Origin: Owenia fusiformis
Taxonomy: Eukaryota
Direction of reading: 5' to 3'
NCBI GenBank assembly: GCA_903813345.2
Contig: CAIIXF020000001.1
Span: 13,082,001 to 13,146,000, forward strand
Length of the DNA: 64,000 nt
How positions within the stretch are numbered: position 1 is the stretch's first letter; each line of letters begins with the position of its first letter. The translations under genes were made by a program, and so were the position numbers. Under the pieces are notes generated by a model. It was not told the DNA's origin. It did no database searches and saw only the letters and a list, made by a program, of their open reading frames with translations. Of this stretch, positions 28,101 to 63,659 are shown piece by piece.

Positions 28101-31100
28101 TTGAAATATTGAAAATATCCATCATATAAAAATGAGTGTATCTGGACTGTCTCACAGTGCATCTAGAAATGATGTACCAAACCAATAAATCTTTTGTAAT
28201 TTGTTATAGGGCTATAGGGTTTAAACACATTTTTATCTTTATTGAGTTATATACATTAAAAGTATATGTTAAAGTTGAATTAGATGAACTAGTAGAACAT
28301 GAGACAGTAGCATTATTAATTTTTAAACATGAGACAGTAGCATTATTATGTTACCATCACAAACATATATTGTTGTAGTCTTCAACTTTTTGTGGATGGT
28401 GTTTTGTGGTTGGTGTCTGTAACAAATGGTAGGTGGTGACATTTATCATTAAATCTTGAATGTGAATAAATGCAGCATTTTGATTGGGCAGTATATAACT
28501 ATGGATTATTTTGCAGGTGTTGTATCTAAACTAATGGCAGAACATAAAAGGAATCCACAAAGTGAATTCCTCATAAAGAGCATCCCTACATTACTGCGGT
28601 CACTGTTCACTGTCGGGCTTTTGTGCAAACATTTTGATTTTGACTCCACAGAGATGGGAGAAACAAGTGTTTCTATTAAGGACAGAGTGTTTGACGTAAT
28701 GATGTATTTTACCCAACATGAAGATGAAAACATCAAACACAAGGCCCTAACTGGATTAGGTGAGTTAACAAGTATAAAGGGATGATGATTTCAAGATCAG
28801 AATGTGTGAACGCATTTTCAGCAAATCACTGACATTTCAACATTTCCAAGATTCTTAAATTAAACATCAACACAAGTAATTTTTTAACGATCAGATTTCA
28901 TCAGTATCGACATCACCTCCATAAAAAATTCATTTATATTGCATCATTGATTATTTTTGTAAAGTTTTTGAAATGGATCTTTATGTGTAGGGTTCCTGGT
29001 TGTCCGGCATTATGACTTTATGCTTGGTAAGACTCTAAGGGACTACTACCACTACCTGCTCATGCACAAGGATGCCTCTATCAAGTTGAAGTGCCAGGTG
29101 CTACGTAATCTACATCTCTATCTAATAGAAGAGGAGTTACAGATGATGATCTCAGACCAAGAATGTAAGATTTCTTTATAATTCAATCAATTACAAGCCG
29201 AGTATGATAAACAAATTAATGTGATGATGATACAGACTTTTTTAAATTAAACATTTAGATATTAGCGAGTTTAAGCTTGCATATAAAATCGAAACTCCAA
29301 CCTATATGTATTACTGATCACCCATACAAATGCATTATTTAAATATTTTCCGTTCACATTTAGGTTGTGAAAAGCATTGCAAGCTTAAACTCCCTATTGC
29401 TTAACTGCTCATAAATGATTCTTGTTTTAAGGGAAAAAACATGCAGAAGCTGAAGACTTGAAGGAAATGGGTGATATCCAGTCAGGAATGGCAAGTACAG
29501 TGATGCAGATCTACCTGAAACAAGTGCTTGATTCATTCATTCACATTAATGCCCAGGTGCGCTTGGCTGCATTGAGTGTCATACAGCTAGTCATGAGGCA
29601 AGGCCTTGTCCACCCTGTACAGTGTGTGCCATATCTCATTGCCATAGGAACAGACACTGACCCCACCATAAGGATCAAGTCAGACCAACAACTGCAGGAA
29701 ATTGATAAGAAATACCCAGGATTTGTTCAGGTGAGGAAATCTACATCTACATCAATAATTCGCATTTAAAGCAGATATATAATTTAACAGTGATATAATT
29801 TGAGTAGAATACAATTTTAACCTTAACATTTAAAAAAAATAGATCACTGAAATGTACACTGAAATCATGAAACACTTCTCCTAGCTATCCACTTCTTCTC
29901 ACTTATTGCTGGAAGTTGTAGATGTAATAACAGGCTACACAGAGAAAATCAACATTAGACATTAATATTTGGGCGTTCAATAAGTATTTAAGTAATCCCA
30001 CCAAAAATTTCTTTATGTGTAGGAGAGTTATTTAAAATGCAAGTCCTACTTGACCTATTAATCTTCCCCAAAAATTGTTACTTCAGGCTTAAAACAGTCA
30101 TTTAACATGGATATTACTTACATGCAGATCCAAGTATTTTATTTCGTTGTAAATTAAAACTTAATCTTGTTTACTCACATGGTTCCAGATGAAATCCCTT
30201 GCTGGGATTAAGATGTCTTACAAGCTCCAGCAGCTAATACAGCAAGACCTGGTTGAGCCTGTACGTGGAAATAGACCTGATGACCAACATCAAACTGAAC
30301 AGAACATTGCAGTGAATGGTTACCTCTATAGCTTGTTGAGAACTAATCGGGCTCATAGACGTGCCTTCCTAACGTCACTTCTTCATCTGTTTGATGACAC
30401 AACGGTAAGAAACTTATTTAATAATGGGATGATTATAACTTCTCCCATGTCTCTGAAGTTTAAACTGGAAACTAAATCAATCTTAATAGATATAAAATAC
30501 AATTGTATCTCATTTTTTCTTTAATCTTGTTTGTTAATCTTGTATCTTGAAGCAAGAAATTTATTCTGTACATAGTGAAGCATGTGTTATATTATTTACC
30601 TGGTTCTATGATGCAACTTCTAATTCCCACATGTTCTACAATTTCAGAGAGCGCCTCTTGCTGAATTATTGTATGTTGCTGACAACATGGCATATTTCCC
30701 ATTCCAACACCAAGATGAGCCACTCTTTGTCATACACACCATTGACATCACTGTCTCAGTGTCTGGAGAAAATATTATGCAGTCCTTCAAGGAAGTGAGT
30801 ATCTGTTCTAATTTGTAGCATTGCTCTGTATAGAATACTTTGGATTGTCTTGCTTAATGGCTGAAAGGTGCGTTCAATGGGAGGGGGTAAAAATCAGGCA
30901 CTTGTCAATAATTGAACTACAAATTGATTTGTGATTGTCTCTCTGTGTATATTCTAGGAACTGTATCCAGATGTTCAGGAGAATGAACATGGTACAAAAG
31001 TATTTGATGATGATGATGAAGACCTGGACACTATTCTTGGTAAGAATTCACTCTACGTTTGTGATGTGGGCAAAATGAGCCAAACATGTTCAGGTTGAAA

Positions 31101-34100
31101 GAGACAGGTTGTGCAAATCTTCACATACATTCCAGGAGCCTGACATAAGTACAGTGACTCACAACCAAAGTTAAGATTTTCAAGATGGACCAAGTGTAAC
31201 AAAATCTTCACGCTTCTTTTCATTTGAAGATCTTGATTCTAGTACTTATGTCTTACATTTTTATTAGCTCACATGGTGAGCTTTTGCAATCACTCACTTG
31301 TCCGTCTCTCTGTACGTGCGTCCGTCCGTCAACAATAGTGGCACATTTTAAAACCTCTGTCGATAAGATTCCTGTTTTAAGTTATTTCTGTTCAACATCA
31401 ATACAGAAAACTCCCCTATGACTCCTGGTTCAAAAGCTCGCCTATTTTCAAAATGGCCGCCATTTTTGTCTCGCGAAATTCACTTTTGACCGATATCCTA
31501 GCTTTACAAATAATTTCAGGTGTCCTGCATTGTAAAAATCCATGTTAATGTAAAGAGTAGTTGTATGAAATAATTTTGTTACAAAAAATTATATCCATTT
31601 TTTTATTTTCAGCCATTTTAGTTAACATTGATTTGCCCATCTGACTCAAAAAAAAACACTTCTTTCAACAATAGTGGCACGTTTTAAAACCTCTGTCGAT
31701 AGGGTTCCTGTTTTAAGTTTTTTCTGTTCAACATCAATACAGAAAACTCCCCTATGACTCCTGGTTCAAAAGCTCGCCTATTTTCAAAATGGCTGCCATT
31801 TTTGTCTCGCGAAATTCACTTTTGACCCATTTCCTAGCTTTACAAGTAATATCAGGTGTCCTGCATTGTTAAAAGCCATGTCAATGTATAGAGTAGTTGT
31901 ATGAAATAATTTTGTTACAAAAAATCAGCAAAAAATTATATCCATTTTTTTATAACATTGATTTGAAATAGTGGCATGTTTTAAAACCTCTGTAGATAGG
32001 GTTCCTGTTTTAAGTTTTTTCTGTTCAACATCAATACAGAAAACTCCCCTATGACTCCTGGTTCAAAAGCTCCCTATTTTCAAAATGGCCGCCATTTTTG
32101 TTCCGCAAAATTCACTTTTGGCCCATTTCCTAGCTTTACAAATAATTTCAGGTGTCCTGCATTGTAAAAAACCATGTCACTGTAAAGAGGTACTAATTTA
32201 AAAATTTTATATGTGGCTACTTAAAAGCGTATTCATTCTTCTGATGACAACTTGGCTAGTGAGCAACCATTTTGAAAATGGTGGCCTTTCTTATGGGTGT
32301 TATTTTACGATATTTGCTATATATTTTGTTTGTAAAAATGCCAGCCATTTCTGTTCAATGGGATACGCTACGCTTTGGCATTGCCGTTGTTCTGGTTTTG
32401 ATTATTTTTTGTATAGCGCATGGAAACTAAATTTAAAAAGTGAGCAATGTCATTAGTATTGTGATAATAATGTCCCTTATACCTATATATTACAGGTCGT
32501 GTAGACCATTGTTGCCCGATTTATAGCAAAAACATTGACTTTTGCACGTTGGTGATGATGTGCCTTTTTTAACAGATCTGATGTCTTAGAAGGGTATCAG
32601 TTCAAAAAAATACTAGATGACCTAACATATTTTGCCATGCACTGCACCTATTCATTTGGCAATTCAGTTGTAAATTTTCTCTTGAAAAAATAAATCTTCA
32701 AAAGTTGAGTTTTCTTGCAGAAATCGCCTTATCCATCATTTTTGTACGATCACCGGGCATGTGTAAGGCCAATATAATGTCTGCCTTTATAACACACTTT
32801 AAATTTTGTATTAACTACTACTTTAAAACTTTGAAATAGCCAATCAAATAAAAAGTTTGTCTAGTTTCACATCTGGGTACTTCTAGATCGAGGTTAGTTT
32901 TAAAATTGGAAAATACAATTTTTTGCTTGATTCTTTTTGTTTTGATGGAATAAATTTGGTTTCCCAGAATAACCACTTTTTAGTATAATAGCAAATCAAC
33001 TGATAAAATGTCATTAAGTTCAAAAGTATTCAAAAGAATTTTCTTGACGCAAAATGTGCCTAGACGTGCATGCAAATCATTTGACGTCTATGAAATAATG
33101 TCAGGGTTACCAAGTATGTTAGCTAATAGCACTAATGTATATATAATCAATTATAATTCTAGTATAATTACTGAAGTAGTAATTGAAATCTACTGGTACT
33201 GTGGTTCATTTGGAAATTACAAATTATACGTTTCAGGTAGCATGAATTCCAAGTTATACCGTAGTGTGATAATGCATATCATTAAATCATATTATAATTG
33301 TAGTATATGGGAAGGGGCACTGAGAAGGGCAATCAGTGAATGACGCAGTTATGTTGTACAATATATAATCAGTAAATGACGCAGTTATGTGTATAAGTAC
33401 ACTACAGGGTACATAAAAATTTTGAAAACATTGTAAATTAAAATATTCAGTGATACTTGTAAATCTGAGACTGCCTACCCCTACAATGAAGTGCTTCAAC
33501 TAATCAACTTATATTATAACCATCCTGCCGGGCCTGTTCTAGGGGTATTAGTGCTTGTTTAGAAGGCTTCTTTTTTACTAAATTGACCTTAGCAATATGT
33601 GACGCCATAGTGGCGTGCTGTAGTGTTGGGCCAATAATGATATTTCAGCCAAAAATGAGATATCGTTTGGTGCATATACTTTTCGTTCAGTGGCCGTCCG
33701 TTCTTGCTATTTCAGCCTTGGGCATAAACGGTGGTAATAATACTAATAACATTATTGTACTATTCTTCATGATTTTCTGTTTCATTCTTTCCACTTGTCA
33801 GTTTCCAGAATTTGACAAACATTATAAGAGAATACATTTTAATGGATCTCTCCTGTATTACAGCAATGAAAAACGTCATATCCTGCCAAAATAGTGAAAT
33901 ATTAAGATATTTTGGCTAAAACAGAAGTCATGAAACCAAAACTACCTTAACTTTTTTGTTACCCTGTTCTTAGCTTATAAATTTTGCTGAAACAAGTATA
34001 TGTACCATTATACCAAATCAACAATGAATATGCAACATACATGTATAGCTTTTATACTTCACATATTCAATAAATGAAAAGAAGCTGGAATTCAAAAAAC

Positions 34101-37100
34101 TTCATATACATACTCGTACCATAGCAAGATAGATCAAATTGCATCATAATGATAAGTCTTGTCATTTTGATCAGTGTCTTTCTTCAGAAGTCACAACAAT
34201 CTAACATCACCTCCACAGATGTGATAAGTTTGGAACAATCTAATATCACAACCACAGATGCGATACGTTTGGAACAATCTAATATCACAACCACAGATGC
34301 GATACGTTTGGAACAATCTAACATCACCTCCACAGATGTGATAAGTTTGGAACAATCTAATATCACAACCACAGATGCGATACGTTTGGAACAATCTAAT
34401 ATCACAACCACAGATGTGATAAGTTTGGAAGAATTTAACATCACAACCACAGATGCGATACATTTGGAACAATATGACATCACAACCACAGATGCGATAC
34501 GTTTGGAACAATCTAACACCACAACCACAGATGCGATATGTTTGGAACAATCTAATATCACAACCACAGATGAGATAAGTTTGGAAGAATTTAACATCAC
34601 AACCACAGATGTGATACGTTTGGAACAATCTAACATCACCTCCACAGATGTGATAAGTTTGGAACAATCTAATATCACAACCACAGTGGCGATACGTTTG
34701 GAACAATCTAATATCACAACCACAGATGCGATACGTTTGGAACAATCTAATATCACAACCACAGATGCGATACGTTTGGAACAATCTAATATCACAACCA
34801 CAGATGAGATAAGTTTGGAAGAATTTAACATCACAACCACAGATGTGATAAGTTTGGAACAATCTAATATCACAACCACAGATGCGATACGTTTGGAACA
34901 ATCTAATATCACAACCACAGATGCAATACGTTTGGAACAATCTTATATCACAACCACAGATGCGATTAGTTTGGAACAATCTAACATCACAACCACAGAT
35001 GTCATAAGTTTGGAACAATCTAATATTACAACCACAGATGCGATAAGTTTGGAACGATCTAGTATCACAACCACATATGTGATAAGTTTGGAACAATCTA
35101 ACGTCACAGCCACAGATGAGACCGCGGCTATTCAGTCTTGGACTTTTGAAAGTGGTACTGAAAATCCTTGGATGACATCTTGTATGGTTGCACTGTTTAG
35201 CACTGTAAACAAAGCAAAACCTTACATAGAAAAGAAATACCCATGCAGTATTCCAAAAGATTTAGTGATTACCCGCCAGAATTATTATCCATTGGCTGAT
35301 GCCTGTATGGCTAAGTATGACTATGTTGAAGAGGATGGTGTGTATGCTGTACTGCTAATTCCCCCTGAAGCTAACCACTATTGTAAACCAGATGTCCCAT
35401 ACTTTAGGCAAGTGACCAATGAGCAGCTTGTAAAGGAGGCAGAGGAGGCAGCAAAAGATCAACAAAACTCATCTGTTCCAACCATATTTGTCTGTATACA
35501 AGGCACAACTGGAATTGATCAAGATGCATATTTGACAATAACTTGCAAAATTGAGAATGAAACAGAATTGACCGATGAGATTGTGATGAAACATTGTATG
35601 ATGAGACCTGGGTGGAAATATTCACAAGTGGACACTCCAAAGGATTGTGTTTTGAAGAATGCTGAACGAGAAAATGACATGATGACTCTTTCAGCTCCAT
35701 ATTATTATGTATTTAGTTGTACTACTTTTTTAGGTTTGCTAGGAAATTGTCTTACTCTTTTTGCAATGGCCAAAGCCAAGCCGCATCCTTCTAGATGTTA
35801 CATAGTATGTTTGATTATTACCCAAAATGTATATTTACTTCTTGCATTTTTTTCCTCTGTAATGGGTCTGGTGAGTGATTACATGGCTTTATACACCTTC
35901 ATGTTATATTTTTGTCAGGCCATGTCTGTTCTCCAATTTGTATGCGCCACTTTGTCTACGTTCATGAAAGTCTTATCTTCACTGGATAGATACCTTGCAA
36001 TTTGTAAGCCATTCAGTTACAGAAAGTTTCTCATGCAAAAATTTAGTACCAAGATTTATTTCGGATTTTTTGTCACCATTGTAATATTGGGTTTGTGGTT
36101 CACATTGCAAGGACTTGTTTTGGAAAATACTAAATCGCATGTGTGTGAATTTGAATTATTTAGCTTACGTAAAATGTCAGAGCATCAAAAGTATTTCATA
36201 ATTTTTGGAGTACTTGTGTATTTGTTACCATGGTTACTAATTGTTGTCCTCAGCTCAATTACATCTAGACACCTATTCAATCACAGTAGAGCACGCAAGA
36301 AATTTAACATTCGTAAAAATGTTAATTTAGCAGATAAATCTGGTTGGCTAAATGCATTAAGGGTCACAATCCATAGGTCAGAGGTTAAGGCCACTATATT
36401 AATGTTCAGTACAATACTCACATATCTGTTTTTTTCTGTTCCTCTAATGGCTGCCCAAATCTGGTTTTACACTGAACAAAGTTCATCTGTTCAATTGAAA
36501 CTCAAAGTTTTATTTGGTGCTGCACTTTTGCATACTATTGAGCATTCTGTAAGTTTAATAGTTTATGGTGTTGTTGTGCCACAATTCCGCATGCTTCTGA
36601 AAAAGGTACTTTTATGCAGATAGCAAAATATAGTCAAATGATGTAAATACAAAATGCTCATCAGTATTCGCTAACTTCTCTATTTTAACCTCTCTTTTGA
36701 TACAGGTATATTTATTATGAACATATATCTGACGTGTGCAAATGTATAAGCTTGTCAAAAGTGCAAGAAGAGTTGACTTTGACTCAGAAAATCAGACTTG
36801 TTATACAACAATTCATATTTTATTATCCCACCGAATGAAGTTCGAGGGGGATATAAATCTGACCGTCCGTCTGTTTGTTGGGGTGATAACTCCAATACCG
36901 GTTGACTGATTTGATTTAAATTTTATAGGCTTATGGCGATAAAACCTCTGCTCGAGAAGGAATTTTTAATATGGCTGCTTAATTCAAAATGGCCACCATT
37001 TTTCGAAAAATGTAATCTTTGATTACTCAAATACTTGTAGACAGATCTGGTTCAAATAATATATGCTGATGCCTAGGGAAGGCTCTATGCTGAAGAAGAG

Positions 37101-40100
37101 ATTTTCAAGATGGCTGCTGAATTTCAAAATGGTTGCCATTTTTCATAGCGAACAAGTGAATATATCATATACTCACGAGAGTATAAAAAACACTATATAA
37201 AGAATGAATCATTATATAAACTTATTATGCCACTCTTAGTATACTGTGAAAATCGGTAACTTCAGTTTACCTTTAGGTCATTTTTCAAAACTTCTCTGCC
37301 CTTCAACTGCCCCATATTATTACATAATATTTCATTTTCTAATTCTGTAATCCTGTTTTATTTAACAGTTTATTTAACTGTGTATACTAAATATTGTCAC
37401 AAAGTAAAAACAACTACAATTAACAACAATTTCACTGATTGAAATCATTCGATGCCTCCTACTTCTACCAGTTCACTTTCTCCGGTCAAAAGTTTTCCTA
37501 CGACATCCGCCATTGTTGTTTTTGCAGAAGATCAATGTAGGCAGAGATATCCCGTGAACTTCTAGTACATTTTAACCTATGCACCTGCTCAGATTGCTAG
37601 TCTTTATGGGTAGACTGTGGCTAGTTATTAGCTCACATGGTGAGCTTTTGCAATCACTCACTTGTCCGTCTGTCTGTCTGTCCGTCAATCTGTCCGTCTG
37701 TCTGTCCGTCTGTCTGTCTGTCCGTCCGTCAACAATAGTGGCACGTTTTAAAACCTCTGTCGATAGGATTCCTGTTTTAAGTTATTTCTGTTCAAGATCA
37801 ATACTGAAAACTCCCCTATGACTCCTGGTTCAAAAGCTCGCCTATTTTCAAAATGGCCGTCACTTTTGTCTCGCGAAATTCACTTTTGACCCATTTCCTT
37901 TAAAACCTCTGTCGATAGGATTCCTGTTTTAAGTTATTTCTGTTCAAGATCAATACAGACAACTCCCCTATGACTCCTGGTTCAAAAGCTCACCTATTTT
38001 CAAAATGGCCGTCACTTTTGTCTCGTGAAATTCACTTTTCACCCATTTCCTAGCTTTACAAATAATTTCAGGTGTCCTACACTGTAAAAATCCATGTCAA
38101 TGTAAAGGGTAGATATATGTTATAATATTGTTACAAAAAATCAGCGAAAAATTATATGCATTTTTTTATTTTCAGCCATTTTAGTTAACATTGATTTGTC
38201 TATCTGACTCGCGAAATCCACTTTTCGTCAATAACAGTGGCACGTTTAAAAACCTCTGTCGATAGGATTCCTGTTTTAAGTTATTTCTGTTCAACATCAA
38301 TACAGAAAACTCCCCTATGACTCCTGGTTCAAAAGCTCGCCTATTTTCAAAATGGCCGCCATTTTTGTCTCGCGAAATTCACTTTTGACCCATTTCCTAG
38401 CTTTACAAATAATTTCAAGTGTCCTACATTGTAAAAATCCATCTCAATATAAAGAGAAGATGTATGAAATAATTTTGTTACGAGAAATCAGCGAAAAATT
38501 ATATCCATTTTTTTATTTTCAGTCATTTTAGTTAACATTGATTTGTCTATCTGTCTCGCAAAATCCACTTTTGGACCATTTACCTTAAACCCTCTGTCGA
38601 TAGGATTCTCGTTTTAAGTTAATTTTGTTCAACATCAATACAAAAAACTCTCCTATGACTCTTGGTTCAAAAGCTCGCCTATTTTCAAAATGGTCGCCAT
38701 TCTTGTTTCGCGAAATTCACTTTTGACCCATTTCCTAGCTTTACAAATAATTTCAGCTGTCCTGCATTGTAAAAAGCCATGTCACTGTAAAGAGTAGTTG
38801 TATGAAATAATTTTGTTACAAAAAATCGGCAAAATATTATATCTGTTTTTTTATTTTCAGCCATTTTAGTTAACATTGATTTGTCCATCTGTCTCACGAA
38901 ATCCTCTTTTGGACCATTTACTTAAAACCTCTGTCGATAGGATTCCAGTTTCACGTTATTTTTGTTCAACATCAATACAAAAAAACTCCCCTTTGACTCC
39001 TGGTTCAAAAGCTTGCCTGATTTCAAAATGGTCGTCATTTTTGTCTCGCGAAATTCAATTTTGGCCCATTTCCTAGCTTTACAAATAATTTCAGGTGTCT
39101 TGCATTGCAAAAAGCCACGTCACTGTAAAGAGTAGTTGTATGAAATAATTTTGTTCCAAATAATTGAAAAAAAATTATATCTGTTTTTTTTTCAGCAATT
39201 TTACTTAACATCGATTTGTCCATCTGTCTCTCCGTCAGTCCAAAATAGTGGCAAGTGGCTTGAAATAATTTTGTTACAAAAAATCAGCAAAAAATTATAT
39301 CCTTTTTTTTCTGTCACCATGTGAGCCCAGTACCCACGGTACTAATTTTTTATTGTCACTATGATGCACAACCACGCCATCTTTCAATAGCAGTAAACGT
39401 TTTTCTATATTGATTAGTTCCCAAAATGCACTTCTACAGTGGTATACGCTAGAGTGGTATACGGTGGAGTGTATACGATGACGATATACCACTCTCCACT
39501 ATATATTGTTGTTATAGACACCTGTTATACAACTATAATTGGACTTAGAGTGGTATAAACTCTGTTGCATAAAAATCATGTCCTGTATACCAGTCTATTC
39601 TATTACATTTATGCATAAGCAGTATTTCAACCTACAAGAAAAATAAATTATTATATCAAATGTGTAAACTAAACTTATTTGTGTAATAAGTATATTAACA
39701 ATATTTCATCCTTTTAACAATATAACCCTGCTTAAACAATAAGTCCATAAATTATCCAAATATCAATTCAGTAAATGGTAAACCTCCAAAGCAGGCCAGA
39801 TCCTTAAAAGGTAACACATATTGTTTAGCAAATCGATCGCTGGCTTCTGGTGTTGCTCAGCGTTTAGTATAAAAGGCCTGATCCCGGAACAATACTCAAG
39901 GGTTCACAGGCTCGAGGTTGTTGTGTCAACACCTCTAACTGTTATGTAGCATCCGTATATTATTTATCGTCACACATTTATAAAAGGGAGATTTTTATTT
40001 TGACAAATCAATTTCACATTTATGGGTGACGTTTTGGGATCTTCTATTTAGTGTACAATAAGGAAAATTGAATTCTTAAGGATAGGTATTGATATGGTGA

Positions 40101-43100
40101 ACTGAATTCAACAATGTTTTTCTCTTAAACCAATTATTGAAAACATTCTGTAAAAAAAACACAATCCTTTATGTAATGTTAACTGATTGACAACAATTTA
40201 ATGTGAAAATAATTTATATATATTTTATATAACTGTTTTTTTGTTAACATTTTTTGTTTTTTTAGTGTTTTGTGTTTTGTTTTTTGTTCCTTTCAGAATG
40301 AAATAAAATGTCTCTCCGAACCTTGTTGGAACAAAATAGCATATACAACATTTTCTTAGACCTCTCAATATTATAGTTATACAAAGGAAATTTTGGTTGA
40401 TTTAACAAAAAGTATGCAAAAATTAAAGCAAGCTCCCCAAAATAGTTAAAATTAAGATAAACCTTTTATTTTATTAACAAGATACTTTTTTAAGAACAAC
40501 CAAACTTTCCTCTGTACAATTACAATATTGAGAGACCTAAACGCATTGTCTTTATCTCATTTTGTTTCAATGGGGTTCGATAGATGTTTCATTACATTCC
40601 GAACATCTGGTACCAAGAACAAAAGAAGTGTCTGATGTGTTTTCTAAAACAGTATAGAGAAAAGTGTATATATTTCAAATTATAATGTTACCATCCAAAA
40701 GATGACCATTAAATTGATGATGTGTAAATTTTTCAGAATTTTTTAAGACTGGTATAAGAGAAATGTGTGTTCAAAAAGTTCACCATATCGATACCACTCC
40801 TTTCCATGATGTATTAGTACACAGCTTGGCATATGAAGTATCCTCCAAATGAAACAAAGCAGTTCTAAACTTCTAATACAAGGATTTATATTGGCTATTG
40901 TACATGCATTCTTTGATCAATCACTCTCTCGATAATGTTTTCAGAATCATTATAAACAGATTACTTTATCTCCAAGACAATTTCAATTAACTGGATTTTA
41001 CAAAATTTCCCTAATTTCTTAAAAATGGACTGATCCAGGTGACTTGCCTTGAGCCGCCATATTGTTTTTATACGGGAAGCTTATCGGAATCCTTTAAAGT
41101 TGATACTCTCACCTTTCAAATGGTATATTGAAAAATAAGGACAAAGTATTAAGGACAATTTGACTTACTTTCTCAACTTGACCTGATTTTTTTTAGCTCA
41201 CATGGTGAGCTATTGCATTGTAAAATGCCATGTCACTGTAAAGAGTAGTTGTATGAAATAATTCTGTTACAAACAATTGGCAAAAAATTATATCAATTTT
41301 TTTATTTTCTGCCATTTTAGCCATCATTCACTTTTGAGCAACACCATGTGTGCCCAGTACCCATGGTACTGTTTTCTATATTTTGCCTTATACCCAATAA
41401 TTGAATTGAAGGTATTGCAATTGAGAAATGATTACAAACAAGATTATTTAAAGCAAAATGATATTCTGTTTCTAGGTCTATTACCAGAAAATCTGGCCAC
41501 CATGCAGGAACTTTGTCTTACTGCACAGGGCTGCATTCTTCTGCTTATTATCAAGAACCACTTAAAGGACATGTATGGAATCTCTGACCAGTAAGTTCAC
41601 ACTTTCAGGCAATTTATTCTATGTACAGGAAATTTAACATGATTATGTAAATTTGTTTAAATCCAAAATAATCTAAATTGGAATGTGCTCACATTATGTG
41701 ATAATAAAGGATACAATCCAATACCAGGGCCGTCAGATGGGGGGGTGCGATGGGTGCGACCGCACCCCCCTTTGTCACCCCCAAAATAAATTTGTCAAAT
41801 TTTTTTTTGAAAAATATTTTTTTTGTAATTTTTTTTTCATTGACTCATACACTTTGAAAGTACCCAGAAAGCACCATATAGTATCTTAAAGTTGTAAAAT
41901 TTTCAAGGGGTATTGGCCACCCCTCACCCCCCCCCCACAAAACAATGGAAAAGTTCTGAGACACTTTTAAAGTGCCCAGATATCATCAAATAGCTCCTTG
42001 ATATAGTAAGTGTTTCTGGGGGACTTACTCCCCCTCTTGCATCTTGCACTTGCATAACCCCCCCCCCCCTCTGGCGCCCCCCTTGACCCCCCCAAAAAGT
42101 GATTTTCTCAAATTCTTTAATTGACCATACACTTTGAAAGTGCCCAGAAAGCATCAAATAGCGTCTTAAAATTGTAAAATTTTCTAGAGGGAGTGGGCCA
42201 CCCCTCACACCCCAAACAAAACAATGGAAAAGTTCTGAATTTGTTTATTTATCGTCTCAGACACTTTTTAAATTGCCCAGACATCATCAAATAGCTCCTT
42301 GATAAAGTTAATGATTCTGGAAGACTAACACTTACTCGCCCTCTGGCATCCCCACTCCACCTCCCCCTCTGGTATTGCCCCTTAACACCTCCCCCCCAAA
42401 AAAAAATTGAGATTTTTCAAATTTTTGTATTGACTCATACCCTTTGAAAGTGCCCAGAAAGCACCAAATAGCATCTTAAAATTGTAAAATTTTCTTGGGA
42501 AATAGGCACTTTTAGGCACAGACACTTTAAAAGTGCCTAAACTTCATCGAATAGCACCTTGATATTGTAAATTTTGATATGGGGGACAAACACTTGCCCC
42601 CCTCTGGCACCCCAGCCCCATCTCCCCCTCTGGCACCCCTTCCCCTCTGGCACCCCCCCCCTTTGACACCCCCAAAATTTGAAAAAAATTGTGATTGTTT
42701 TTCAATGTTTTTAAATTGTTAAATTTTCTAGGAGAGTTAGCCACCCCTCACATCCCCCACAAAACAAAAGAAAATATTCTGAATTTCATGTATTGTCTCA
42801 GACATTTTTTAAGTGCCCAGACATCATCAAATAGCACCTTGATATGGTCAATGTTTCTGGGGGACAACTCCTTGCTCACCTACTGGCACCCGACAACACT
42901 TCACCCTCTCATCCTCTTTGACACCCCCAAAAGAATTTGAAAAAAATTCACATTTTTCTTATTGACTCATAACGCACAGGCGTGCCAGATGGTTGCAAAT
43001 TCGCTCCAAATACAACCAAATTTCAAAATTTTCCTGGGGAAGAACCCCGAGACCCCCCGAATGCTCGGTTTTTTATTCACTCAACTCTTATTCCCGTGGT

Positions 43101-45333
43101 GGTGGCGTACTACTTAGAAACTTACACTTTGAAAGTGCCCAGAAAGCACCAAATAGCATCTCAAACTGGAAAATTTTCTAGGGGGAGTGGACCACTCCTC
43201 ACAACCCCACAAAACAATTGGAACGTTTGGAAGTTGCATGTATTTGTTAATTCCAAACCAATATAGGGAGTAACTGACCCCCCCCCCCCCCCTCTGTCTT
43301 AGGCGATTTGATTTACGCGGCAAAAAATGACAATTTTATATTCTCTTTAGTAAGCTAAAAACCGCACCCCCCTTGGAGAAAAGTGTTTTACGGGCCTGAA
43401 TACAATTATAAAATACAATGCAATCCAATGTAATACAATACAATACAATACATACATAGAACTGGAGTGGGAAATTCAGGGAATATTGTATTTTTTTAAT
43501 TGATGTGAGACCATAAAAAAATTATTTCATTACCTCTATTCTGCAGGAAAATAAACACATACTCGCCAAATGATGCAGCTAAAGTTAATGAAAAACCACT
43601 CAATCGAAAACGTGTTGTGAAGTTCAAACCAAAACAGGCAATCGGTATACTGAAGCAGGGACCCCCAGAAACTTATGTAGATGATGAGATGAAGAGAAAA
43701 ATTGCTGAGGAGTACTTAGGGGTAAGCCTACAGCGATCTTGAATTTTTAATTGCATATGCAGTGAATAAAGCTCTATGGAAACCAGTTTAGTAAAAATGA
43801 AAATTGTTTATCTAAGGGGAACATGTAGTTAATGCTAGCTTACAAAAGGCATAATAATTGCTTAACTATGTCACAAGATTTATATCCAGTAATATCTGTT
43901 TCTTTGTTTCAGTTCAAGCAGCTGATGGACAGTATTGACCCCCAGGATGGTAGCGATGATGGAAGTACAGGGCGTCAGACCCCTGCCACTCGGGCATTTC
44001 AGAGTGGCACACCTGGAGGTTCTGGTACCCCTAGGGGGAGTGAAACCACACCCCCTTCAGCCTCAGTTCCACCTCCCCAGGAGAGCAACCATAATACCCC
44101 ACCCCATCAGGATACCCCAGGGGGTACCCCAGGGACTTCAGGGCAACAAGGCCCTATTAAAATCACAATCCGGTTACCTATGGGGCCTGGTGCCCAGAAT
44201 GACTCTGAAGAAGAAGATGAAACAGAGGACAATCAAAGTATGGTGTCAGGGGGCACCACTGGGAGGAGCATAGCTTCAGGCCCAACTCATAGTGTTGCAT
44301 CTGTAGATAGCTTTGAACCAAAGGTATGTATTCAAGTGCCTGATTTCTAATAAAAAACTGTCCTTTTCTCCCAACCTATGGATCTACATTGTAGTGCATT
44401 TTTAATGGTCCTGTCAGCAACAATATTTAAAATCTTTTAAAACGCTTCTTTGAAATTGATTTATTCATACCAAGATCTTACTGTTTTGTTATACACTTGT
44501 GAGCAGGGAAGGAAAGCCAAGAACATAAAGAAAGGGCTTTCAAAATCCAAAACACTGGCCAAAGTTTCAAAAGCCAAAACACTGGCCAAAGTTTCAAAAC
44601 CCAAACAGACCAAAGCAACTTCTAAATCAAAGAAAAATCAAAACCAAAGGAGAAGAAAATAGGTTACTAGTAATTAGAATAAGCTCTTGTAAGGTTGCAT
44701 ACACATTTGTTGAGTTTTCCTTATTTGTTCATTATGTTTTGGTTTGTTTGTTGTTAGCATATACTTTATCAGATAATTGATAATATTTTATGATCAGAAC
44801 GTATTTGACATTAATTTGGAGCTATTTTTTTTTATTTATAGTAAGTTTATTTTATTTTCACAAAAATCAATAATTGTATTGTATTAATTTGGAGCCATTT
44901 ATCATTATGATCAAACTAACTTAGTAATAGGCCTAGTGACATTATTGTTATAGGCACCATAATTTGTAACCTGCATTTGTGTTGGTGGCTTAAATAAAAG
45001 ATCTCAATTTTGTAATTGCAACCAGGTTGTGACATTTTGTGATGTTAAAGACTGATCGTTTGGGCTGTATCGACAGTTATTACTGACAAAGAATTTGGCT
45101 TATTCGGCACTTTTTGTTTATTAAGTAAAATGTATTTTAAAACTTTATTTGAAAATTCTGAATTGTTATTCATATTATTTCAGGCAAAAGAAAGACGAAG
45201 ATCTAAATCAAAATCTCATAAGAAATCCAAGTCCCACAAAAAGAAGAGCAAGAAAAAGAAGAGGAGATACAGCTATAGTGATGAAGAAGAGGATGATAGT
45301 GATGATTCAGAGGACCCAGATTTCACATATTGA
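4101..45333 (+). CDS. NIPBL: Nipped-B-like protein (NIPBL/Scc2, cohesin loader), 44 coding exons, about 2184 aa
   Basis: Spliced translation matches recalled NIPBL motifs: N-terminal MNGEVPSVPITTLAGITSLTDLLPELPLPSPLP, DYRPLFENFVQDLLTTVNKPEWPAAEL, DTGISVRKRVIK, EDLKEMGDIQSGMAS, QGLVHPVQCVPYLIA. All introns are GT-AG with consistent phases. The CDS sums to 6555 nt including the stop. Exons are listed separately. Confidence 0.97.
4205..6048 (+). mobile_element. Helentron-associated (HINE/pearl-like) element, family A, with internal tandem repeats
   Basis: Begins after a T-run with gtcacca...tggtg; ends ggtggtgacattttgtcatgttaatgccttgtt; degenerate core repeats ttcaaatctga...tttgacc. Confidence 0.7.
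4413..5380 (+). mobile_element. HINE/pearl-like element nested in the family A copy
   Basis: 5' gctcacagagtgagc, (ccgt)n microsatellite, 3' gtgagc plus hairpin aggacc-gtg-ggtcct, flanked by T-runs. Confidence 0.75.
6351..6519 (+). CDS. NIPBL: NIPBL exon 2
   Basis: LPELPLPSPLPQTVNNKSLLFHPKV; ag/gtaagt. Confidence 0.95.
6722..6834 (+). CDS. NIPBL: NIPBL exon 3
   Basis: ELKDKALGSDSIQGDVPDLLRAILAQNSNVF; ag/gtaagt. Confidence 0.93.
7019..7106 (+). CDS. NIPBL: NIPBL exon 4
   Basis: VPVRSPYYQQQSPYQ; phase-consistent ag/gtatgg. Confidence 0.85.
7246..7364 (+). CDS. NIPBL: NIPBL exon 5
   Basis: YQQPGYGSPNRYPQ; phase-consistent ag/gtaaat. Confidence 0.85.
7834..7899 (+). CDS. NIPBL: NIPBL exon 6
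   Basis: GTMNGGVPVPRPSQ; 66 nt, ag/gtacat. Confidence 0.75.
8276..8577 (+). CDS. NIPBL: NIPBL exon 7 (contains PxVxL motif PVVML)
   Basis: TPQTVVSPPKD...EPVVMLKPLDAD; ag/gtaagt. Confidence 0.9.
8834..8977 (+). CDS. NIPBL: NIPBL exon 8
   Basis: EIAKQLSKHKSKK...RDRDRHSSSK; ag/gtatag. Confidence 0.87.
9107..10196 (+). mobile_element. Internally deleted mariner element with TA TSD and about 190-bp imperfect TIRs
   Basis: TA|cgaggggtgatccaaaagtcttggacgccc at both ends. Frameshifted transposase remnants at 9541-9857: LPYAPYSLMALCD (YSPDLAPxD-like), FFLFSKLKEGLK, YEKCVQIHGKYVEK*. Confidence 0.9.
10441..10477 (+). CDS. NIPBL: NIPBL exon 9
   Basis: YQGLKLMSPSVK; strong polypyrimidine tract plus cag, donor gtaagt; needed for the phase 0 to 1 change. 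Confidence 0.82.
10934..11191 (+). CDS. NIPBL: NIPBL exon 10 (candidate cassette exon, Lys-rich)
   Basis: 258 nt, symmetric phase 1-1, open: SEDKENVGRGKGRRTRGKRVTWEPQMKKIQ...; weaker sites tag/gtttgt. Confidence 0.6.
11696..12156. mobile_element. hAT-type MITE
   Basis: TIR taggggtgagacga / tcgtctcaccccta; 8-bp TSD ctgtttac; subterminal gattcgagtc repeats. Confidence 0.92.
12396..12473 (+). CDS. NIPBL: NIPBL exon 11
   Basis: LRIDPKDEKMMRDLKRKH; ag/gtgagt. Confidence 0.85.
12724..12900 (+). CDS. NIPBL: NIPBL exon 12
   Basis: KRSKYDEHDEFDAY...SESEME; cag/gtaagt. Confidence 0.9.
13629..13793 (+). CDS. NIPBL: NIPBL exon 13
   Basis: LTIEELMETPQFKRFTHAIETVIENAED. Confidence 0.93.
13921..14027 (+). 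CDS. NIPBL: NIPBL exon 14
   Basis: PPEALIHKSLLNDLANEAAKLKSM. Confidence 0.93.
14167..14998. mobile_element. Kolobok-like non-autonomous DNA transposon
   Basis: TTAA flanks; TIR agtccccgtctaaagttt / aaactttacatggggcct. Confidence 0.7.
15210..15296 (+). CDS. NIPBL: NIPBL exon 15
   Basis: VPSDRLVKLLTILQINIRDGAKL. Confidence 0.93.
16357..16591 (+). CDS. NIPBL: NIPBL exon 16
   Basis: LWRELTLERVLKSVD...FPEFDPVYR. Confidence 0.95.
16876..17030 (+). CDS. NIPBL: NIPBL exon 17
   Basis: SSKQKRARAK...LYNKLCE...LTDTSILQ. Confidence 0.95.
17283..17464 (+). CDS. NIPBL: NIPBL exon 18
   Basis: PFFVENVSELQLNALKLVTSIFSHYEKHRQLI. Confidence 0.95.
17505..17912. mobile_element. piggyBac-type MITE
   Basis: TTAA|cccttaaacggttagg ... 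cctaaccatttaaggg|TTAA. Confidence 0.85.
18075..18210 (+). CDS. NIPBL: NIPBL exon 19
   Basis: SIQMVTALVLNLIQSVIILP. Confidence 0.93.
18496..19975. mobile_element. Possible Kolobok-like element hosting the 18709 MITE
   Basis: TTAA|ag ... ct|TTAA ends with only weak TIR similarity; CpG-rich interior. Confidence 0.35.
18709..19662. mobile_element. hAT-type non-autonomous element
   Basis: TIR taggggtcaaacggtt / aaccgtttgacccta; 8-bp TSD ctatttat; subterminal aaccg repeats. Confidence 0.9.
20029..20111 (+). CDS. NIPBL: NIPBL exon 20
   Basis: VDKEVVIVTSYETGMRTAHSF. Confidence 0.93.
20510..20642 (+). CDS. NIPBL: NIPBL exon 21
   Basis: EDVDYRPLFENFVQDLLTTVNKPEWPAAELMLSLLGKLL. Confidence 0.96.
21077..21220 (+). 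CDS. NIPBL: NIPBL exon 22
   Basis: VQQFSNKSVDMSMRVASLDYLGIVAARLRKD. Confidence 0.96.
21369..21446 (+). CDS. NIPBL: NIPBL exon 23
   Basis: MYENNSDDEDSEKEED; 78 nt, phase 0-0. Confidence 0.8.
21517..23513 (+). mobile_element. 5'-truncated non-LTR retrotransposon (LINE; RTE-X/CR1-group-like, clade unresolved) in NIPBL intron 23
   Basis: Begins abruptly in RT subdomain 0/1 with no endonuclease. The 3' UTR has stem-loop ctcat-ataa-atgag (23475-23488), AATAAA (23491) and a (caata)n tail. Confidence 0.9.
21526..23355 (+). CDS. LINE ORF2 fragment: reverse transcriptase plus C-terminal zinc-finger-like motif
   Basis: 609 aa uninterrupted: IPILKAG-KD...NSRGITL, LDIRKAFDTV, QGVHQGGVLS, YADD, CILCNLCETETIEHFILRCP. 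Confidence 0.9.
   Translation: MNFRFGILIPILKAGNKDPCNKDNSRGITLMNMLRKVYDHIVLKRIGSLAKNIMPNLQGASQSHCSAVHTSLLVQETIAHNVEKHRNVILATLDIRKAFDTVWLDGLMVKLHKLGIRGKLWRMLYDNYHKYECAVRVGSSNTLSKPFNVMQGVHQGGVLSMLFYQLYMADLIQDLCEMNIGGHIDDVNCVCPSYADDMTIIATNQKDMQLMLNAAFEHSRRWRYEIHPAKCNFLTFNDMVTDSSVKGHVVLKIGDTRIPKVNFTVHVGIPISSKNDISQYVNDRCTSGKRKFCSLLGLGHKTGGLSPLTASKLYWAFSIPTMLFGAPVINYQASDVEKLELTHREIGKRIQFFPKTSANPSATMPLGWLSIDGYITVLQMMYLWSLLRFNNIYRDITITRLVKMFHVTYDNHADIFSPIRRIFLKTKMLGIENLVKNALDSGYLPSKRSWRLQIVNAVRSVEVKQFFLQCSCYGKLSYLRDYVTDLKPCIWWLICQKYPKCQSQCKTMMQLICNAHVLNTNNFNGSKRCILCNLCETETIEHFILRCPMYEPYRHNIFEALGCRGDSMGVIMKKVLGLSDVSCETLIIVSSCVHKMYNHRANLLALLDT
23655..23744 (+). CDS. NIPBL: NIPBL exon 24
   Basis: TEKLQKAMLNYLVFNGQNDPSL. 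Confidence 0.92.
24032..24237 (+). CDS. NIPBL: NIPBL exon 25
   Basis: FARSFYISQWFRDTTVEMEK. Confidence 0.95.
24501..24600 (+). CDS. NIPBL: NIPBL exon 26
   Basis: DDACFVARFLASNRPFSHSFDIYLTQ. Confidence 0.95.
24845..24943 (+). CDS. NIPBL: NIPBL exon 27 (HEAT repeat region)
   Basis: ILRVLSETAVAVRTKAMKCLTAVVEADPSILAR. Confidence 0.96.
25093..25239 (+). CDS. NIPBL: NIPBL exon 28
   Basis: DMQKGVHGRFLDQSTSVREAAIELVGKF. Confidence 0.96.
25464..25598 (+). CDS. NIPBL: NIPBL exon 29
   Basis: DTGISVRKRVIKIFRDICVEQPDF. Confidence 0.96.
25840..25992 (+). CDS. NIPBL: NIPBL exon 30
   Basis: KLVNEVFQTMWFT...GFEWLEQLL. Confidence 0.95.
26305..26413 (+). CDS. NIPBL: NIPBL exon 31
   Basis: VEHACRQIVDCLIDNVLALEE. 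Confidence 0.94.
26661..26797 (+). CDS. NIPBL: NIPBL exon 32
   Basis: RLVSCLSTLYLFSKMKPDLMVAHATTLQPYL. Confidence 0.95.
27116..27256 (+). CDS. NIPBL: NIPBL exon 33
   Basis: NVARILELVVPLMSNPSESFLSQLEEDLMKLILKHG. Confidence 0.95.
27987..28080 (+). CDS. NIPBL: NIPBL exon 34
   Basis: VLQSCVSCLGGVVNKVTKNFKLV. Confidence 0.95.
28517..28759 (+). CDS. NIPBL: NIPBL exon 35
   Basis: LLRSLFTVGLLCKHFDFD...KALTGLG. Confidence 0.95.
28991..29164 (+). CDS. NIPBL: NIPBL exon 36
   Basis: LKCQVLRNLHLYLIEEE. Confidence 0.94.
29432..29730 (+). CDS. NIPBL: NIPBL exon 37
   Basis: EDLKEMGDIQSGMASTVMQIYLKQVL...QGLVHPVQCVPYLIA. Confidence 0.96.
30189..30404 (+). CDS. NIPBL: NIPBL exon 38 (Nipped-B C-terminal domain)
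   Basis: MKSLAGIKMSYKLQ...RAHRRAFLTSLLHLFDD. Confidence 0.95.
30648..30794 (+). CDS. NIPBL: NIPBL exon 39
   Basis: LLYVADNMAYFPFQHQDEPLFVIHTIDITVSVSG. Confidence 0.95.
30958..31039 (+). CDS. NIPBL: NIPBL exon 40
   Basis: ELYPDVQENEHGTKVFDDDDEDLD; donor gtaaga opens the 10.4-kb intron. Confidence 0.88.
31261..32197 (+). mobile_element. HINE family B copy 1 (3' subTIR and hairpin deleted)
   Basis: gctcacatggtgagc start, gtcc microsatellite and about 300-337-bp core repeats; ends abruptly in ggtactaattt. Confidence 0.8.
32230..33770 (-). pseudogene. Probable decayed class A GPCR, head-to-head with the intact GPCR
   Basis: Minus-strand translation with many stops: signal-like MKNSTIMLLVLLPP at 33770; TM1-like LIIYTLVLLANILGN (about 33151-33106); TM2-like ILLNTFELNDIL; TM3-like C...ADIILALHMP (to 32755); hydrophobic IIITILMTLLTF*I*FPCAI (about 32474-32412); RKATIF. 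Confidence 0.4.
34149..36623 (+). CDS. Intronless rhodopsin-class (class A) GPCR with signal peptide, 13-aa repeat stalk and Cys-rich ectodomain; nested in NIPBL intron 40
   Basis: 824-aa ORF with hydrophobic N-terminus and seven hydrophobic segments from about aa 518. Motifs: GLLGN (TM1), Cys at the top of TM3, SLDRYLAICKP (DRY at 35985-35993), LP (TM5), FFSVP (TM6), EHSVSLIVY and an FR helix-8 motif. The pattern resembles FMRFamide/peptide-receptor-like GPCRs. Confidence 0.9.
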   Translation: MISLVILISVFLQKSQQSNITSTDVISLEQSNITTTDAIRLEQSNITTTDAIRLEQSNITSTDVISLEQSNITTTDAIRLEQSNITTTDVISLEEFNITTTDAIHLEQYDITTTDAIRLEQSNTTTTDAICLEQSNITTTDEISLEEFNITTTDVIRLEQSNITSTDVISLEQSNITTTVAIRLEQSNITTTDAIRLEQSNITTTDAIRLEQSNITTTDEISLEEFNITTTDVISLEQSNITTTDAIRLEQSNITTTDAIRLEQSYITTTDAISLEQSNITTTDVISLEQSNITTTDAISLERSSITTTYVISLEQSNVTATDETAAIQSWTFESGTENPWMTSCMVALFSTVNKAKPYIEKKYPCSIPKDLVITRQNYYPLADACMAKYDYVEEDGVYAVLLIPPEANHYCKPDVPYFRQVTNEQLVKEAEEAAKDQQNSSVPTIFVCIQGTTGIDQDAYLTITCKIENETELTDEIVMKHCMMRPGWKYSQVDTPKDCVLKNAERENDMMTLSAPYYYVFSCTTFLGLLGNCLTLFAMAKAKPHPSRCYIVCLIITQNVYLLLAFFSSVMGLVSDYMALYTFMLYFCQAMSVLQFVCATLSTFMKVLSSLDRYLAICKPFSYRKFLMQKFSTKIYFGFFVTIVILGLWFTLQGLVLENTKSHVCEFELFSLRKMSEHQKYFIIFGVLVYLLPWLLIVVLSSITSRHLFNHSRARKKFNIRKNVNLADKSGWLNALRVTIHRSEVKATILMFSTILTYLFFSVPLMAAQIWFYTEQSSSVQLKLKVLFGAALLHTIEHSVSLIVYGVVVPQFRMLLKKVLLCR
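34200..35120 (+). repeat. Coding tandem repeat, 39-bp unit x about 23.5 (SNITTTDAIRLEQ)
   Basis: Unit tctaatatcacaaccacagatgcgatacgtttggaacaa repeated with no frameshift or stop. Confidence 0.97.
36821..37147 (+). mobile_element. HINE family C, 3'-truncated copy
   Basis: atcccaccgaatgaagttcgagggggatata start and core repeats homologous to 60833-62035. Confidence 0.75.
37625..39345 (+). mobile_element. HINE family B copy 2 (complete)
   Basis: 12-bp subTIR gctcacatggtg / caccatgtgagc; (gtct/gtcc)n; about 337-bp core repeats; 3' hairpin agtacc-cac-ggtact. Confidence 0.85.
40078..40801. mobile_element. Fold-back (whole-length palindromic) element
   Basis: 40085-40163 pairs with 40721-40795; 40362-40415 pairs with 40482-40534. 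Confidence 0.7.
41194..41371 (+). mobile_element. HINE family B copy 3 (minimal)
   Basis: gctcacatggtgagc ... caccatgtgtgc plus hairpin agtacc-cat-ggtact. Confidence 0.75.
41476..41590 (+). CDS. NIPBL: NIPBL exon 41
   Basis: LPENLATMQELCLTAQGCILLLIIKNHLKDMYGISD. Confidence 0.94.
41725..43398. mobile_element. hAT-like non-autonomous element with internal about 280-310-bp tandem repeats
   Basis: Termini cagggccgt / acgggcctg; cgcacccccc subterminal motif; repeated ctttgaaagtgcccagaaagca; lies in a (caata)n tract; TSD not clean. Confidence 0.6.
43399..43456. repeat. (CAATA)n microsatellite
   Basis: aatacaat...caatacaatacaatacataca. Confidence 0.8.
43547..43721 (+). CDS. NIPBL: NIPBL exon 42
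   Basis: KINTYSPNDAAKVNEKPLNRK. Confidence 0.94.
43913..44323 (+). CDS. NIPBL: NIPBL exon 43
   Basis: FKQLMDSIDP followed by a low-complexity G/T/P tail; cag/gtatgt. Confidence 0.9.
44507..44662 (+). CDS. NIPBL: Candidate alternative NIPBL last coding exon (Lys-rich, stop TAG)
   Basis: cag acceptor ends at 44506; in frame with exon 43; GRKAKNIKKGLSKSKTLAKVSKAKTLAKVSK...RRRK*. Confidence 0.5.
   Translation, partial: GRKAKNIKKGLSKSKTLAKVSKAKTLAKVSKPKQTKATSKSKKNQNQRRRK
45184..45333 (+). CDS. NIPBL: NIPBL exon 44 (terminal)
   Basis: tttcag acceptor; AKERRRSKSKSHKK...DDSEDPDFTY*. Confidence 0.85.
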   Translation, partial: AKERRRSKSKSHKKSKSHKKKSKKKKRRYSYSDEEEDDSDDSEDPDFTY

Positions 45334-63362: not shown

Positions 63363-63659
63363 AGTCCTGACTATTTGATAAAGGAAAAAACCATTTGTTC
63401 CTTTTATTTGAGTCAAAAAATAGAAAAACACCATTGTAAAATGTAATTTTTGAAATGAGATACTTTATTTCAGATAGACAATTTGTAAATCAAATAGCAA
63501 CATTTATTTTATATTTGTAAATCAGTGTTAATACTTTAAGTTATTGCTTCCAATATATGCTAAAAATGTATCAAAAAGGTGAATCTGTTGGTTATAGAAC
63601 TCTCTATACAAGAGATAGTCCTTCAAGTGTAGACATGTATAAAGAAGACCGAATAATTA

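Follow-up and report, generated by a model that had tools for sequence, protein, structure and literature searches.

The window analysed here is a 64,000-nucleotide stretch of the genome of the annelid Owenia fusiformis (GenBank assembly GCA_903813345.2, contig CAIIXF020000001.1, positions 13,082,001 to 13,146,000 of the forward strand), and all coordinates below are counted from its first letter. In an intron of the NIPBL gene the window holds an open reading frame (ORF) for a G protein-coupled receptor (GPCR) with a membrane domain of class A, the rhodopsin type. On balance this ORF is probably a real, intact and intronless gene, restricted to one lineage, which joins a class A membrane domain to a new kind of ectodomain and is nested in sense orientation in NIPBL. 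An earlier, sequence-only reading of the window had described a single-exon ORF of 824 residues at 34149-36623, and this was borne out, with an ATG start on the + strand. The order along the chain is a hydrophobic leader, a tandem 13-residue repeat, a cysteine domain and the first transmembrane helix (TM1). The gene and its parts are as follows.

34149 to 36623, + strand: complete single-exon receptor ORF (P0001), ATG to TAG, 824 codons plus stop.
34149 to 34187, + strand: hydrophobic, signal-like N-terminus, residues 1-13, MISLVILISVFLQ, read from the translation.
34188 to 35123, + strand: 24 tandem units of 13 residues (39 bp), residues 14-325, consensus SLEQSNITTTDAI, from Tandem Repeats Finder (TRF), the unit table and the composition.
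35124 to 35657, + strand: orphan extracellular eight-cysteine domain adjoining TM1, residues 326-503, from conservation in the related proteins P0003 and P0004.
35658 to 36611, + strand: class A seven-helix domain plus helix 8, residues 504-821, from Pfam, AlphaFold2, Foldseek and motif columns.

Outside the repeat, 495 codons are open, for which the chance is about 1e-16 at the composition of the window (DNA of 36% G+C). An in-frame stop lies 8 codons upstream of the ATG, the stop-to-stop frame beginning at 34125, so that the first ATG is the sole possible start in the receptor exon. Aligned with the 573-residue paralogue P0004, the ORF shows no large gaps (window 35157-36611, tblastn expectation value (E) 1.3e-67). 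In the public annotation the receptor is present only as an unnamed, 5'-incomplete product of 539 residues, P0002.

The membrane domain is of class A. A seven-transmembrane (7TM) domain of this class containing the DRY motif had been proposed, with 7tm_1 or an Srw-like family as the expected outcome of a Pfam search, and it was 7tm_1 (PF00001) that matched, over residues 535-781, scoring 67.7 bits where the curated cut-off is 30.5 (E 1.5e-18). In the hydropathy profile, seven hydrophobic segments follow the cysteine region. A sequence search of the PDB returned 116 distinct sequences at E ≤ 0.01, the best 60 of which are all class A receptors, with the cholecystokinin A receptor (CCK-A) as the top match (6e-6). 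Residues 330-824 were modelled with AlphaFold2 on a 69-row alignment of search matches, giving a predicted template modelling score (pTM) of 0.69 and a model with seven long helices and a helix 8, in which the blocks of the membrane domain have a predicted local distance difference test score (pLDDT) of mostly 85-97. The modelled helices span query residues 175-213, 218-246, 253-290, 301-325, 344-391, 402-446 and 452-480, followed by helix 8 at 482-492. Compared with the PDB by Foldseek, the model gave at least 500 matches at E ≤ 0.001, the best 50 all being class A receptors, with a best E of 1e-10 and a target-normalised TM-score (TMt) of up to 0.85; opioid, CCK, somatostatin, orexin and chemokine receptors are among the matches.

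Conserved positions were read from columns of the 69-row MAFFT alignment, which is not a structural one, and were counted over the other aligned GPCR hits. The receptor keeps N1.50 (N in 64/66 other hits), the DRY motif as D613-R614-Y615 (Arg in 66/66), P5.50 and P6.50 (P765). The cysteine pair linking TM3 and extracellular loop 2 is C589/C666, in columns that are Cys in 59/66 and 60/66 hits and also in P0004. Two positions of the activation core depart from the class: position 2.50 is Q559, also Q in P0004 and D in 66/66 other hits, and position 7.49 is S802, also S in P0004 and N in 49 of the 52 hits that have no gap in this column. TM7 reads SLIVY in place of NPxxY, with Y806 kept, and TM6 reads FSVP in place of CWxP, without the Trp. 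As D2.50 is a hallmark and not an obligatory residue, class A membership stands, with the receptor read from its sequence as a divergent member.

The ectodomain has a far narrower distribution than the membrane domain. When residues 330-824 were searched with HMMER against 1.84 billion representative proteins, 101 matches were obtained at E ≤ 0.001 and only 2 at E ≤ 1e-10. The ectodomain is common to only two of the 101, P0003 and P0004, both from Owenia fusiformis, in agreement with the lineage-specific architecture proposed at the outset. P0003 (CAH1775463.1) is an unnamed, partial product of 290 residues, 88-89% identical to the receptor, which matches window 35064-35933 and spans the last repeat units, the cysteine domain and TM1 to TM3. 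P0004 (CAH1776233.1 / UniRef A0A8S4N532) is an unnamed product of 573 residues with 32% identity (E 1.1e-62), and its match extends over query residues 8-492, taking in both the ectodomain and the entire 7TM. P0002, P0003 and P0004 are all annotated on the same 62.2-Mb contig (62,201,769 bases). In the other 99 matches the best stretch never starts before query residue 145, so that they concern the 7TM only (E ≥ 4.5e-7, identity ≤ 33%). The named proteins among the nearest of these are mixed, including FMRFamide receptor-like (scallop), TRH receptor-like, NMUR-4 (nematodes) and GPR139-like (nemertean) proteins, and the nearest 7TM matches as a whole are assorted invertebrate orphan or peptide-receptor-like proteins with ≤ 28% identity. 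By these matches the receptor is orthologous to no characterised receptor.

Three further searches gave the same narrow picture within their scopes. A word-index protein search with residues 330-824 found only the receptor's own public model P0002; a three-row profile search, which scored the 8000 candidates with the most words in common, found only P0002 and P0003 and did not list P0004; and a search with the P0004 ectodomain (residues 36-235) among proteins of 315-1003 residues found only P0004 among 674 candidates. Between P0004 and the receptor, stretches of intracellular loop 1 (MAKA..HPSR.YI.C, after TM1) and intracellular loop 3 are conserved. Residues 1-36 of P0004 form six 6-residue units (MNSEGL/MNTEVS/INTEGP/KNLEGS/MKGEAL/MNYATL) with no hydrophobic leader, and its public model may lack the 5' part of a longer repeat, in the way that P0002 does. 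From the comparison with P0004, long-term constraint on the receptor family is clear.

The domain next to TM1 is non-repetitive, about 180-190 residues long, and has cysteines at residues 345, 366, 386, 412, 449, 466, 483 and 500. It had been described as a Cys-rich region of 180 residues; the region and its eight cysteines stand, while its content of only about 4% Cys makes "eight-cysteine domain" the apter name. P0003 and P0004 retain every one of the eight cysteines. Identity to P0004 is 56/180 (31.1%) in the ectodomain and 96/309 (31.1%) in the 7TM, and this equality argues that both parts evolved as one unit. In Pfam, the ectodomain matches no family at E ≤ 1, and its Atlas feature search gave no usable match. 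An internal duplication of a four-cysteine module, suspected from the cysteine spacing, was considered and set aside: BLASTP of the two halves gave nothing at E ≤ 100, and hhalign of three-row half-alignments gave a probability of 0.24 and an E of 0.25.

The best surviving alternative is that the receptor is an ordinary member of the class A expansions of Lophotrochozoa, which have been proposed as chemoreceptors, so that the ectodomain would be incidental and the ligand would bind in the helical bundle. We consider this possible, if rather unlikely, and it overlaps the reading of a lineage-restricted receptor gene. Such expansions are described as candidate chemoreceptors by Nath et al. 2025 in the main text of PMC11886862, in which the terms "Owenia", "ectodomain" and "domain architecture" are absent. 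In the Atlas feature search with residues 330-824, the nearest entries are the mollusc "Chemosensory receptor A" and similar 7tm_1/Srw clusters (0.95), and together with the orphan and peptide-like character of the nearest 7TM matches, the restriction to one species and the richness in amino-acid variants this speaks for the alternative. Expansions of this kind hold many paralogues restricted to a lineage, frequently clustered in tandem. Only two or three copies, and no expansion, were found in the protein libraries, however, and conservation is equal in the ectodomain and the 7TM, which speaks for a functionally integral ectodomain.

The position of the gene within NIPBL could be fixed exactly. 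Nesting in sense in a NIPBL intron at 31040-41475 had been proposed, and the splice sites give these same coordinates, with NIPBL exon matches on the + strand.

30958 to 31039, + strand: NIPBL exon directly upstream of the host intron, with acceptor AG at 30956-30957, donor GT at 31040 and an open frame.
31040 to 41475, + strand: NIPBL host intron, 10,436 bp, GT..AG, from splice sites and flanking exon matches.
41476 to 41590, + strand: NIPBL exon directly downstream of the host intron, from a human NIPBL match and splice sites.

The intron begins with GTAAG at 31040 and ends with TTCTAG at 41475. In the solved human NIPBL chain, the frame 30165-30521 matches residues 1190-1260 (E 4.4e-16) and the frame 41442-41590 matches residues 1349-1398 (E 1.2e-4), and Pfam Nipped-B_C was found on the + strand at 29431-29766 (E 4.5e-27) and 30165-30521 (E 2.3e-9). 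The exon 30958-31039 was assigned to NIPBL through its matched neighbour 30165-30521 and not by a match of its own. The receptor ORF is not itself a NIPBL exon, having its own start and stop and an unrelated sequence. It presents a clean case of a sense-oriented coding gene nested in an intron of NIPBL, an essential and highly conserved gene, and this nesting raises the question of how receptor transcription coexists with that of the host.

Several observations weigh against a real, intact gene with a new kind of ectodomain, and they are set out in this and the following two paragraphs. With regard to the ectodomain, its AlphaFold2 model from three sequences is poor (pLDDT 50.4, pTM 0.46), so that neither the fold nor any contact with the loops can be read from it, and in the larger model of residues 330-824 its blocks have pLDDT values of about 30-55. 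Alignment of the ectodomain model by VIA-align against 48,161 chains gave none at Z ≥ 5 (best Z 4.8), and Foldseek against the PDB gave no match at E ≤ 0.001; because the model is poor, these blank fold searches do not establish a new fold. The suggestion of a very large, unusual extracellular part without a described family is nonetheless upheld, since neither Pfam, Atlas nor the fold comparisons returned a match for the ectodomain.

With regard to expression, three RNA runs (X9, X10 and X11, sampled at 6-12% of reads) were examined over 35119-37600, which is free of long repeats. Depth over the coding part is 0-0.7 in X9, 0-1 in X10 and 0-2.9 in X11, and a stretch of about 500 bp, 35617-36114, is uncovered in all three. 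Every read over the coding part has its first mate on the - strand, which in most stranded libraries corresponds to + strand RNA, and no splice joints were found within the receptor ORF (35119-36623) in the three runs; these sense reads are indistinguishable from NIPBL pre-mRNA. In the unique intron flank 37194-37600, X11 has no reads in the sense direction, but the numbers are too small to count. A further run, X1, has a flat depth over coding and flanking DNA, more DNA-like than RNA-like, and is uninformative on expression. Neither AATAAA nor ATTAAA occurs within 1,077 bases 3' of the receptor stop. Over 35119-36620, reads and contigs show 20 variant sites, of which 15 are non-silent and 5 silent, giving a ratio of non-silent to silent polymorphism (pN/pS) of 0.81 with no silent excess (binomial p 0.42), so that short-term constraint on this copy of the receptor is unproven and looks weak. 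These results would suit a silent or decaying gene copy, a recent duplicate or passenger in a repeat-rich intron with no function of its own, which we regard as unlikely. Speaking further for it are the near-identical partial copy P0003 on the same chromosome-size contig and a repeat element that flanks the gene on both sides.

31261 to 32200, + strand: repeat element copy upstream of the receptor gene, from repeat families D2-D7, with a 336/338-bp internal satellite.
37625 to 39300, + strand: second copy of the repeat element, downstream of the receptor gene, from repeat families D2-D7 and TRF.

Both copies have the same orientation, and their 70-nt heads are 90% identical (reference 31261-31330); they may be separate insertions, or a duplication that carried the receptor gene along. 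Their satellites have 3 and 4 units, and an extra fragment of the element lies at 41214-41333. Against a decaying copy, the frame runs unbroken through all 824 codons, without a frameshift, in DNA of 36% G+C where stops are frequent, and the eight cysteines and the intracellular loop motifs are kept in comparison with the 32%-identical P0004, although this reflects constraint on the family rather than on the present copy. Only a small fraction of each RNA run was sampled, with tissue and stage given as codes, and expression confined to a few cells is common among genes of the chemoreceptor type. The variant set may moreover be contaminated by the P0003 copy: 7 of the 8 non-silent variants inside the P0003 range equal the P0003 residue, and 7 of the 34 differences between P0003 and the receptor recur as variants in reads on the window, so the variants may be alleles shared with that near-identical copy or reads from it. 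In X1 the summed contig depth falls from about 50-56, a level held as far as 35948, to 27-33 directly beyond it, close to the end of the P0003 match at 35933; contig depth is a poor measure of copy number, and the drop hints at a partial second copy of the receptor. P0003 may represent an allele retained as a false duplication, or else a recent, partial duplicate that undergoes gene conversion. Were the gene silent, it would amount to just another lineage-specific orphan ORF, incompletely modelled in the public annotation.

With regard to the 39-bp array, TRF found 23.7 copies of the unit at 34195-35118, with 89% matches and 0% indels. Its consensus unit is open in 3 of the 6 frames by construction, and the 68 base differences from the unit consensus fall 24/23/21 on codon positions 1/2/3, without a codon-position bias; relative to the consensus the array codons carry 46 non-silent and 15 silent changes, so the array by itself bears no coding signature. 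The public model P0002 begins within the repeat and without a Met. The protein starts MISLVILISVFL..., in which a hydrophobic run was read by eye at residues 2-12, a putative signal peptide with no positive charge ahead of the run. It could be that the receptor is real and the array untranslated, as a 5' untranslated region or promoter-proximal satellite, with the mature protein starting near the cysteine domain. This reading, itself compatible with the receptor gene being real, strikes us as improbable to about the same degree as the silent copy, and translation of the array as part of the receptor we hold to be likely, with good confidence. The repeat lies in frame between the sole ATG with its hydrophobic leader and the conserved cysteine domain, and its 924 bp contain no indel and its 24 units no stop. 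The only Met ahead of the conserved residues is residue 1; the next, residue 341, falls in W-M-T-S-C of the conserved block and is Leu in P0004. A disulfide domain of 190 residues needs export, and the only hydrophobic leader is upstream of the array. The annotated proteins P0002 and P0003 both start inside 13-residue units of the repeat, P0004 opens with a different short repeat, and X9, X10 and X11 all have sense-direction depth in the first bin directly after the array, 35119-35201.

As translated, the repeat is rich in sites for N-glycosylation, with 21 N-x-S/T sequons within residues 1-330 and one in nearly every unit, and its recurring regular feature is an N-I-T sequon once per 13 residues. 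Thr makes up 22.4% and Ser 11.5% of the residues (34% Ser+Thr), and Pro 0/312. Classical mucin PTS regions are tandem repeats rich in Pro, Thr and Ser, and the Pro-free repeat of the receptor is, by its composition, unlike classical mucin stalks, and the label "mucin-like" does not fit it. The picture of a stalk that projects a ligand-binding domain also failed, for the repeat is the membrane-distal free end and the cysteine domain abuts TM1, so that the repeat cannot raise that domain above the membrane. A Pfam match to Toprim_4 at residues 165-203 (E 4.8e-6, 27.1 bits) was rejected as an artefact of summing over repeats, as no single stretch passed.

An adhesion-type or mechanosensory receptor, whose glycosylated stalk passes force to the 7TM, is very improbable: the long glycosylation-rich extracellular region would fit it, and a free N-terminal polymer could in principle be pulled on, but neither 7tm_2, GPS/GAIN nor any other adhesion-type or Pfam ectodomain family was found at E ≤ 1, both hidden Markov model and fold place the 7TM in class A, and the repeat is distal to the globular domain without a terminal adhesion module, so that membership in the adhesion GPCR family, and with it the description "adhesion-receptor-like", is already contradicted.

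For an intact receptor gene with a new kind of ectodomain, a working mechanism can be proposed. Acting as a signal peptide, the hydrophobic N-terminus would direct the export of about 500 residues. The disulfide-bonded domain next to the membrane would lie atop the extracellular loops or the helical bundle and serve as a ligand-recognition or activation module. Its logic would resemble that of LGR/RXFP receptors, in which the ectodomain drives activation, although the domain itself is unrelated. The terminal glycosylated repeat would form a distal glycan brush or antenna, and not a stalk beneath the cysteine domain. Signalling through G proteins would proceed by the intact DRY motif and the conserved intracellular loops, whereas an activation core without the D2.50/N7.49 pair would lack the usual sodium/activation switch. 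As for the ligand, an environmental or conspecific macromolecular cue may be guessed, because of the lineage restriction and the many amino-acid variants. A bolder version takes the receptor and its relatives as founding members of an undescribed class A type, in which the new domain fused to TM1 is a built-in ligand-binding or activating module, the D2.50/N7.49 sodium switch has been given up, and the Pro-free N-I-T-T-T repeat is a folded, regularly N-glycosylated rod or antenna instead of a floppy mucin; we think this doubtful, and a degree less likely than the silent copy or the untranslated array.

Other features of the window lie outside the receptor gene. Just 3' of the receptor stop, 36779-37193 is a very high-copy transcribed repeat, with a summed contig depth of up to 14,310 against about 50 in the flanks (X1) and an RNA depth of about 70; its translation resembles the frames 60869-61225 (+) and 58468-58806 (-), by eye only. 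In another NIPBL intron, 21517-23355 (+) is a stop-free frame of 612 codons with Pfam RVT_1 (E 1.9e-30), a non-LTR-type retroelement in the same orientation as NIPBL. The NIPBL intron that follows the one with the receptor includes, at 41900-43300, a stretch whose G+C content (0.41) exceeds that of its surroundings (about 0.33), with long frames on either strand (41924-42244 (-) and 42973-43266 (+)) and a 17-bp CCCCCTCTGGCACCCC-type repeat at 42624-42673; this G+C-rich stretch is probably another mobile element. Long frames at 43829-44350 and 45049-45333 (+), rich in Ser/Pro/Gly/Thr and then in Lys/Ser, resemble low-complexity C-terminal NIPBL exons, and 43829-44350 has no Pfam match. The frames at 63521-64000, on either strand, translate into a periodic peptide of IEISIR... 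units, pointing to a tandem repeat that continues beyond the end of the window.

In comparison with known systems, the receptor shares with class A peptide-type GPCRs (CCK-A, opioid, nociceptin, somatostatin and orexin receptors) the 7tm_1 family, seven helices and helix 8, the DRY motif, the cysteine pair, P5.50 and P6.50, and a fold likeness at Foldseek E 1e-10 and TMt of about 0.8. It differs from them in its sequence (14-18% identity), in an N-terminal part of about 500 residues against tens of residues, and in Q2.50, S7.49 and the lack of W6.48. With the lineage-specific class A expansions of Lophotrochozoa, candidate chemoreceptors in the main text of Nath et al. 2025 (PMC11886862), it has in common the class, the restriction to one lineage, many amino-acid differences and the mollusc "chemosensory receptor" neighbours; it differs in its two to three copies and in a large conserved ectodomain, a feature that the same main text does not mention. 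P0004 has the same layout of N-terminal short repeat, eight-cysteine domain and 7TM, the same Q2.50 and S7.49 and a place on the same contig, and differs in having six 6-residue units against 24 of 13 residues, DRL instead of DRY and a longer C-terminal tail.

LGR, glycoprotein-hormone and relaxin-family receptors combine a class A 7TM with a large ectodomain and ectodomain-driven activation. Like the LGR and relaxin-family receptors, the receptor described here has a class A 7TM after a large, predicted disulfide-bonded ectodomain adjoining TM1, and by analogy ectodomain-driven activation is plausible for it as well. It differs from them in that no LRR or LDLa was found by Pfam at E ≤ 1 in the whole protein, and its ectodomain gave no sequence or fold match at all, the fold comparison being made with a poor model. 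Adhesion GPCRs (class B2) share with it the long glycosylated extracellular region. In adhesion GPCRs the stalk stands between the distal modules and the GAIN domain, whereas the receptor has neither 7tm_2 (PF00002) nor GAIN/GPS and bears its repeat at the extreme N-terminus. Large non-LRR N-termini on class A receptors have reportedly been seen in other invertebrate genomes, and among the titles and abstract openings of the literature consulted no paper concerns a class A receptor with such a layout. If the receptor is expressed and functional, class A receptors would be able to gain a wholly new, conserved extracellular domain and a hyper-glycosylated repeat within one annelid lineage, and loss of two among the most conserved activation residues would be tolerable in the class. 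The receptor would then offer a natural test case both for ectodomain gating in class A and for the need for D2.50/N7.49. Should the founding-type reading prove true, this ectodomain would be a third independent ectodomain-gated solution, beside the LRR of LGRs and the GAIN of adhesion GPCRs.

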